A stretch of 62,981 bases of DNA, filler included, from Rhabdomonas costata (lineage: Eukaryota), in NCBI GenBank assembly GCA_019059605.1. It is 46 parts of 46 records of this genome, joined end to end, with 100 filler letters (N's around TTAATTAATTAA, not from the genome) between each part and the next. Parts side by side here need not be neighbours in the genome. Positions count along the whole stretch, not along the records: positions 16,452 to 17,723 come from JAHMHO010021157.1; 45 more parts are not named here. One strand, written 5' to 3'. Positions 16,452 to 17,723 of the stretch are shown piece after piece. The position numbers were made by a program, and so were the translations under genes. Below the pieces are notes generated by a model. That model had not been told where the DNA came from and did not search any database. It saw only the letters and a list, made by a program, of their open reading frames with translations. The first letter of the stretch is position 1. Each line of letters starts with the position of its first letter.

Positions 16452-17723
16452 GGGGTGTTGGTCAACAAACAGGTGGTCTTTGCCAAGCAGCTGCCGATAA
16501 GTCTTTAAGGCCTCCTCGTAAAGCGGCACTGCCGCCACGTACTTGCCTTGGTCTAAGAACAACTGTGCAAGTGTGCACAGTCTGTACGCCACCTGCAGGC
16601 TTGAGGGCCCGCACACTCGCTGGTCATCTTCGAGGCGGCTCTCAATAACCTCGTGCGCCTCCTGGGAACTGCCGCTATCCAAAAACAAATCCTCAGCCAG
16701 GTCCCAGAACTCATCTACAGCCTCCACCTCTACAATGCACAGGCGCTGCTGCTGTTCGTGTTGCAGCGGCTCCTCCTTGGGCTTGTATGTCTGCTGCCGA
16801 ATGCTGTCCGCACCAAAAGCGTCCCTTAACTCCATCAAGCTCATCCATTCCTGCCCCTTCAACCGGAACTGCTGACCCAGCGGAAACACAACCTCCTGCT
16901 CCTCCGGATACACGGACAGGTGCACGATTCTTGCCGCACAGCATTGCAAATTGCTCGGATCGCTCACTGAAATCACCAGAATCGTGTTTGCATCACACTC
17001 ACGTATCGAAGCCATCATTTTCTCCATGGACATCGTGCACGACATGAAACCATCCATTGAGAAGAGATTGGACGCAGAGTCTTCCTGCACAGCTAACTGG
17101 GCCTGTTGCTCAGGGCTCAGCTTGAGGACGCGGTAGCAGGTGGAGCGATACGGGCAGGATTCAGCCAGCCTTCGCAACGCACAATGAAGCACCCAAATGT
17201 AAGGCTTCAGATGAACATTGCCCTCGTCGCGAGCTCGCAGTACGGCATTCACTCGCCGAAACAAGAAGGACTCTACCGTAAACAGTCGAACCACTGTCTC
17301 AAAAAGCTCGTCATCATTGCCGCTCAAATATGCTTCTCTCAATCGCTCCGACATTTGCTCCGGGGTGGGATGTCGTGTACAGAGCTCACGCTGTTCGGGT
17401 TGATTCTGCAGAAAATGAGTAGCTCTCAGGCTCGACCATGCCGCATAGCCCACCTTTCCGCAAAGGTAGGCCCTGCCTTCCTGCAAAACCCCATCACAGA
17501 GTTGCTCCATCGATACTTTCGTCCGATCGAAGGGAGCATAACGATTCCCAATCAATGGATTGATTGCAACCGAGCGAGCGAAGGCTTGGTCGTAGGTCCA
17601 AAAGGGAAGGGTTCCACACTTTCTTCGCTCATCGGTCTCAGCCAGTGATCTCTCACACTCCAAATAGACCTCCATCACCCTCAAGATTTCGGGATGCTCC
17701 TTGGACTCCTTCCCACAAACACC
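16452..17723 (-). CDS. R-S-E class mono-ADP-ribosyltransferase domain fused to kinesin-light-chain-type TPR repeats; partial and intronless
   Basis: One frame is open across the whole contig. It contains the FTVESFLFRRVNAVLR helix, TCYR (R), GFMSCT (S) and SVYPEEQEVVF (ExE), followed by the TPR LAQLFLDQGKYVAAVPLYEEALKTYRQLLGKDH. Confidence 0.9.

Follow-up and report, generated by a model that had tools for sequence, protein, structure and literature searches.

The described proteins closest in fold to the locus reported here are ADP-ribosyltransferases (ARTs) of the R-S-E clade, namely HopU1 (3u0j), XopAI (6k94, 6kly) and the 6drh toxin, which are its best fold matches, helical N-lobe included. 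HopU1 and XopAI are bacterial effectors delivered in the manner of plant-pathogen type III systems and carry neither ankyrin nor TPR modules, unlike the family described below. The vertebrate ecto-ARTs (ARTC, such as ART2.2, 1gxy) belong to the same Pfam family and share both the fold and the R-S-ExE signature. Excerpts of the 2021 nomenclature paper (PMC9027952) describe eukaryotic ARTCs as extracellular, being GPI-anchored or secreted, and include inactive members among them. A third point of comparison is provided by fungal NLR-like proteins with KLC-type TPRs, in which, according to an excerpt of PMC4986451, an enzymatic effector precedes a C-terminal TPR array within a multigene family, as is the case here, and some arrays contain near-identical repeats that vary on their concave face, resembling the euglenid units.

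Arginine-specific ARTs were seemingly lacking in unicellular eukaryotes according to a 2010 review (PMC3102197). Comparative reports had, in the sections excerpted, recorded mono-ARTs of toxin derivation in eukaryotes before (PMC3417536, PMC3482391), and the enzyme class itself therefore comes as no surprise. It is the occurrence in euglenids of an expanded ankyrin-ART-TPR family, probably cytosolic, that appears to be undescribed so far: no description of such a family in euglenids or other protists was found in literature listings and the opening parts of abstracts, and the domain-architecture supplements of comparative papers might list such proteins.

The window (the whole stretch of DNA analysed, 62,981 nucleotides from Rhabdomonas costata) consists of 46 contigs, each about 1.27 kb long and unlinked to the others, separated by N spacers. 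One of these contigs carries the locus, with the following features:

16452..17723, minus strand: 424-codon open frame filling contig G000:C21157 (JAHMHO010021157.1), its protein being referred to as P0001
17634..17693, minus strand: helix closing the ankyrin module, residues 11-30 (the repeats themselves are on the overlapping contig L020)
16710..17603, minus strand: ART domain, residues 41-338 (PF01129; model; Z 16.2 to HopU1)
17130..17132, minus strand: Arg198, strand-1 arginine of the R-S-E triad (CYR)
17040..17042, minus strand: Ser228, strand-2 serine (FMSCT)
16893..16901, minus strand: Glu275-Gln-Glu277, ExE motif (as defined in PMC3102197)
16470..16697, minus strand: start of an array of 42-residue KLC-type TPRs, residues 343-418, truncated by the contig end

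The frame is indeed open from end to end over its 424 codons, as the initial annotation had it, and contains neither start nor stop, being truncated on both sides by the 1,272-bp contig. P0001 comes from within a longer ankyrin-ART-TPR gene: the window takes in only about 1.5 TPR units, and the ankyrin repeats and variable N-terminal modules lie off the contig. Since the frame is one whole contig, open at both ends, the lack of an intron that had been annotated means that there is none in the 1,272 bp of the gene that the contig covers. The outermost bases look like the G/T or A/C tails of contig ends, which makes the first and last few residues of P0001 unreliable. Many contig ends across the window (1-62981) are short G/T-rich or A/C-rich tails with the look of a library artefact. 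The neighbouring contigs were dropped as genomic context for P0001, as they are unlinked to it and none of their 135 longest frames matches Pfam at 1e-4.

At its 5' end the contig is overlapped by another (L020, G000:C38497) with 131 of 133 bases identical, on which ankyrin repeats are found in the same frame as P0001. L020 is thus the same gene, another allele of it or a copy made very recently. The frame common to both contigs extends back to an acceptor-like TTTTTCCTACAG and, with a splice at this point, this exon of the gene would measure about 1.55 kb or more. No other match was found for the upstream part of L020, and a PH-like look of its upstream frame was set aside, having no Pfam support. 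On the 3' side, the search for a near-identical overlap returned only 75-89% matches to repeat contigs. The last TPR unit of P0001 is 81% identical to 253-bp repeat contigs, and a contig that stops within a TPR array resembling such contigs is the usual sign of collapsed repeats.

Pfam and the structural model agree with the initial annotation in making P0001 an R-S-ExE mono-ART fused to TPRs. PF01129 (ART) matches residues 145-290 (E 6e-6, 26.2 bits vs a cut-off of 22.3), TPR_10 and TPR_12 exceed their cut-offs at residues 342-417, and kinesin light chains make up the top 14 of 15 matches in a PDB sequence search, in keeping with the KLC-like repeats annotated after the enzyme. The AlphaFold model of P0001 (27 sequences; mean pLDDT 85.5, pTM 0.86) has the ART fold: in a search of 48,161 chains, ARTs took all of ranks 1-20 (Z 10.1-16.2), no TPR or other helical protein exceeding 7.2, and Foldseek agrees with these matches. 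The best folds are near-tied, with HopU1 at Z 16.2 (rmsd 3.4, 201 residues aligned), XopAI at 15.5, the 6drh toxin at 15.0 (rmsd 3.2-3.5, 174-203 residues aligned and 14-20% identity for these three) and ART2.2 at 14.0 (rmsd 3.1, 191 aligned). The same kind of search with a full-length paralogue gave TPR-type matches only, among the matches listed.

In the model, the ART domain consists of a helical N-lobe (residues 41-189) and a split-sheet catalytic core (193-338). As the alignments with HopU1, XopAI and ART2.2 begin at model residues 37-61, and those with all four best matches at 37-70, the helical region noted ahead of the motifs is present and is the N-lobe of the enzyme, not a separate module. 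All three motifs are intact (R198, S228, E275-x-E277), and R198, S228 and E277 sit at the predicted strand positions expected of R-S-E enzymes, on strands 1, 2 and 5 respectively. The ExE motif marks arginine-specific ARTs (PMC3102197), and by analogy with the known enzymes P0001 would use NAD+ to ADP-ribosylate arginine. Only P0001 has a Phe in one helix column; of the 22 remaining rows that cover this column, 21 have Tyr and 1 has Trp. The XopAI family model has no match in P0001 (its relative P0156 scores 25.9 bits vs a cut-off of 300), and PADLOC returned nothing for P0001 and generic TPR matches for two other proteins.

Searching the genome with P0001 gave at least 51 matches, and 25 contigs match the family core (the part before the TPRs); the family is an expanded one. 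Four copies (L003, with 868 residues from its first Met, L004, L006 and L009) give the order of the modules as a variable N-terminus, ankyrin repeats, the ART and a TPR array, a layout supported by the model of L003 (pLDDT 85.4, pTM 0.76). Unlike in the fungal NLRs, the euglenid ART joins the first TPR directly, with no room between them in P0001 or in the L003 model, and no NACHT or NB-ARC was found in L003, L004, L006, P0003 or P0006. The full-length euglenid copies end in TPR arrays and have no signal-like start by eye, and hence look intracellular, unlike the ARTCs. Five proteins (L004, L005, P0118, P0125 and P0160) start with Met-Gly-Cys or Met-Gly-Ser-Cys (Met-Gly-Cys in L004 and L005), which we take to be acylation signals. 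P0006, a relative from outside the genome, has a weak RIIa docking-domain-like match at its start, below the cut-off (E 0.009).

The P0001 family is probably a birth-and-death family. Among the 13 contigs covering all three motifs, R-S-ExE is kept in eight (one of them with stops) and lost in five; L002 and L006 have lost it and still have long open frames, and stops or frameshifts interrupt several copies. Individual copies show further rearrangements. In L010 (1052-1444, minus strand) a UBR-box zinc-finger frame (E 1e-6) lies upstream of the ankyrin-ART core, separated from it by a 218-base GT-AG stretch, and exon capture is possible. L009 (153-2732, plus strand) is near-identical to P0003 in its 3' half and differs in its 5' half, the switch coinciding with the in-frame stop of L009; this mosaic could be due to gene conversion, a chimeric gene or mis-assembly. 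L002 (3-1598, minus strand) has two TPR units followed in frame by part of another ART N-lobe, and L065 (22-642, minus strand) has TPR units of the P0001 type that lead without a frame break into ankyrin repeats, a succession found in none of the other copies. In L068 (1796-2488, minus strand) a TPR array is followed by an acidic stretch, a weak ubiquitin-interaction-motif match (E 0.04) and a cysteine-rich tail.

ARTs of this genome extend well past this family, as PF01129 has 51 matches in it, mostly outside the P0001 family. Further R-S-E ART families with unrelated flanks are found in L028-L052 (among them L028/L029/L034; L037/L051; L038/L040/L042/L050; L041/L047/L049; L032; L033), some stopping at intron-like breaks and others exceeding 400 codons. 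There are also six ADP-ribosylglycohydrolase matches, which indicates that erasers exist in the genome. Outside the euglenids, rotifer-rich ART database clusters reach feature scores of 0.95-0.96 for the ART part (three of the four listed are mostly rotifer, with automatic names only), and ankyrin-ART clusters reach 0.80-0.86, as leads with automatic names only. The many uncharacterised rotifer ART fusions suggest that the theme is not confined to euglenids.

The genes of this family are host euglenid genes. Database proteins labelled Rhabdomonas costata match the paralogues colinearly at 98-100% (297/297 residues for P0017 and L015, 449/458 for P0019 and L004, and an almost exact match of P0003 to the 3' half of L009), and GC3 is 0.63 in P0001 vs 0.62 in a host dynein exon; these paralogues and this composition assign the contig to the host. 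The genome also contains paraflagellar-rod genes, in short pieces, and such genes are not known outside Euglenozoa. The small-subunit rRNA (L053:855-2696, plus strand) is much expanded, with 1,842 bases for model positions 4-1116. The assembly further contains, in L081 and L083, a tandem 5S gene and another 5S gene of non-host look, which we take to be plant-like and bacterial-looking respectively and to suggest contaminants. Proteins of R. costata were predicted from transcripts, according to an excerpt of PMC8219788; if the entries labelled with its name derive from data of this type, the paralogues would be expressed and their long exons real.

No protein near-identical to P0001 itself was found in the protein database searches, of which the word-indexed ones were insensitive (1, 2 and 5 matches) and the exhaustive one was dominated by TPR-only matches, the best stretch covering the core in 14 of the 150 matches listed. 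Among the matches listed, the core-covering relatives include a degenerate Euglena longa protein that has lost the R-S-E triad, proteins encoded on ENA contigs 0.13-1.6 Mb long, and Logan ART-TPR proteins. Four of the latter (P0118, P0125, P0159, P0160) have the family N-lobe motif and the ART-TPR layout, three of them with Met-Gly starts, and may come from a non-euglenid lineage. In a tree of 33 rows, which holds no bacterial or rotifer ART, P0001 groups with L002, L007, L008, L010 and L012 with strong support (100/99), and the E. longa protein falls in another clade (99/99) together with a JGI protein and all but one of the six ENA long-contig proteins, the backbone being unresolved. A family common to two euglenid lineages is not a recent import, and the horizontal transfer proposed in the initial annotation finds no support in its recent form, given these relatives, the host-like GC3 and scans with one or two short patterns in which no relative was confirmed among 60 prokaryote, 47 viral and 69 metagenome matches. 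An ancient bacterial origin of the ART domain is likely, by analogy with the general pattern set out in an excerpt of PMC3417536.

The initial annotation also proposed spread by retrocopying, and it set the uninterrupted frame against host exons mostly under about 270 nt. Most host exons do stay within that length (no more than 270 nt in 25 of 38 dynein matches, and no more than 237 nt in all nine paraflagellar-rod matches), but 13 of the 38 dynein matches are longer, one of them spanning 1,158 bases, and a dynein heavy-chain gene (L080:1-2755, plus strand) has two exons of more than 1.2 kb with short breaks between them, in frames of 404 and 502 codons. With dynein exons equally long, long exons are not special in the host genome. 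The alpha-tubulin gene of Rhabdomonas costata, as reported in an excerpt of PMC8219788, is interrupted by only 2 introns over its 1,356 bases.

The P0001 family is itself intron-poor, not intronless: L005 has a 394-base phase-0 GT-AG intron in the ankyrin region, where ten other contigs are uninterrupted, the core begins after an acceptor-like CAG in L007, L010 and L020, and the UBR-box frame of L010 lies upstream as a separate exon. L005 lies in another clade than P0001 and its intron is found in no second copy, and no parental intron common to the copies was found. Poly-A is absent from both three-prime flanks read (L003, L006), which may end too soon. No spliced-leader relic was found upstream of any copy (a leader motif occurs at one of 98 loci, with one mismatch and on the opposite strand to an ART remnant), and no spliced-leader gene was recognised beside 5S rRNA, the longest word in common with the family contigs being at most 13 bases. 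Retrocopying is therefore possible but unsupported, and DNA-level duplication and recombination are enough to account for the spread of the family.

To examine variability in the arrays, we used 43 TPR units from 11 ART-linked contigs and 25 units from 8 unlinked ones, a set which replaced that of a regular-expression scan (14 units); the codon models leave out one unit whose sequence extends beyond the repeat. Within arrays, DNA identity is 88% between L012 units and up to 89% in L021, with means of 0.49-0.60 in eight of the ten ART-linked contigs that have at least two units. In 20 linked unit pairs at least 80% identical, pN rises above the overall pS only at unit positions 3, 6, 13 and 16, of which the last three are TPR positions 2, 9 and 12 in the Pfam TPR_1 register. 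These TPR positions line the ligand groove and vary in TPRs generally, as described in an excerpt of PMC1261162. The variability at groove positions is real. Diversifying selection on the units is suggested by the codon models, not established: for 10 units of the P0001 clade M2a is preferred over M1a, a signal kept when branch lengths are left free (2dL 15.7, p 0.0004, with positions 6, 13 and 3 at an omega of 6.8), and for the 5 ART-linked units of this clade alone p is 0.02, but seven L021 units (p 1.0) and all 17 units together (p 0.7) give no signal, making the model significant in one of three sets. A count of distinct codons, which is immune to unit reshuffling, gives P values of 0.03 and 0.10 for the best two of 42 sites, uncorrected.

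The core, for its part, is under purifying selection. Pairwise dN/dS between P0001 and its paralogues is 0.12-0.35 in 8 of 15 pairs, the other seven being saturated, and at sites where two sisters agree P0001 has a pN of 0.17-0.22 vs a pS of 0.47-0.51. The 424 codons are still open at a dS of about 1 from the nearest paralogues. P0001 evolves somewhat faster than the sister copies in 4 of 15 relative-rate tests, which, along with the Phe in the Tyr column, makes some relaxation of P0001 possible.

On the reading we favour, the family may consist of TPR-gated intracellular arginine ADP-ribosyltransferases with a role in conflict or defence, a proposal for which we judge the case to be evenly balanced. 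The N-terminal module would set the location of the protein, the Met-Gly-Cys starts suggesting membrane anchoring. The TPR groove, to judge by the anatomy of the protein, would bind a protein ligand differing between copies, and this binding would either bring the enzyme to its target or lift a restraint. The ART could then modify the bound partner or a downstream host protein, and ADP-ribosylation would block a protein of the invader or a host process as a defence or conflict response, with copies that lack the catalytic residues acting as putative decoys or regulators. The variability at groove positions and the broken or catalytically degenerate copies lend indirect support to such a sensor-effector role, which the initial annotation had put forward. 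We counted the conflict enzymes among the closest folds in favour of a defence or conflict reading and, against it, the absence of an NTPase switch from the family, the modest internal identity of most arrays, the mixed selection signal, the variability of groove positions in TPRs at large and the missing near-identical database protein for P0001. The acylation-type starts, the weak RIIa-like match and the ADP-ribosylhydrolase genes fit ordinary signalling equally well.

The alternative that we rank next is one of housekeeping signalling, in which the enzyme would be a reversible writer of arginine ADP-ribose at the membrane or flagellum, its TPRs would recruit fixed host substrates and the expansion would reflect sub-specialisation. 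The starts of L004, L005, P0118, P0125 and P0160, the RIIa match of P0006, the UBR-box exon upstream in L010, the six ADP-ribosylglycohydrolase matches, the strong purifying selection on the core and the mixed outcome of the selection tests on the TPR repeats all agree with it. The broken and degenerate copies, the chimeric pair and the groove-only variation of near-identical repeats, on the other hand, have the look of a fast-turnover conflict system, and the E. longa relative has no triad, so that we consider this explanation somewhat unlikely while giving it serious weight.

It is improbable that P0001 is a decaying or silent duplicate. Such a copy would fit with the missing near-identical database protein, the faster rate in 4 of 15 tests, the unique Phe and the frequency of broken copies in the family, but not with a triad kept intact and 424 codons kept open at a dS of about 1, nor with the low pN relative to pS (0.17-0.22 vs 0.47-0.51), and L020 continues the frame through the ankyrin repeats. 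Less probable still is a suicide or dormancy effector whose domain acts chiefly as an NAD+ hydrolase or on a target other than protein: some R-S-E enzymes do hydrolyse NAD+ or modify DNA, but these carry QxE (PMC3102197), and P0001 has ExE. A contaminant contig, or a recent bacterial or viral transfer, would accord with the non-host 5S rRNA genes of the assembly and with the bacterial origin of the closest solved structures, but is hardly credible in view of paralogues 98-100% identical to euglenid-labelled proteins, a GT-AG intron in one of them, the GC3 of 0.63 vs 0.62 and the 60, 47 and 69 prokaryote, viral and metagenome pattern matches among which no relative was confirmed.

Returning to the TPR-gated enzyme with a conflict or defence role, a more specific and rather unlikely form of it would make these proteins switch-less immune receptors of euglenids, in which an intracellular arginine ART is coupled straight to a fast-diversifying TPR array, catalytically dead copies act as decoy or brake, and captured upstream exons redirect individual copies. 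Protist immunity is little known, and a direct test is possible, since intact full-length members of the family can be expressed and assayed. If the switch-less receptor reading were true, it would mean that a free-living unicellular eukaryote uses ligand-gated, toxin-type ADP-ribosylation for its innate defence.
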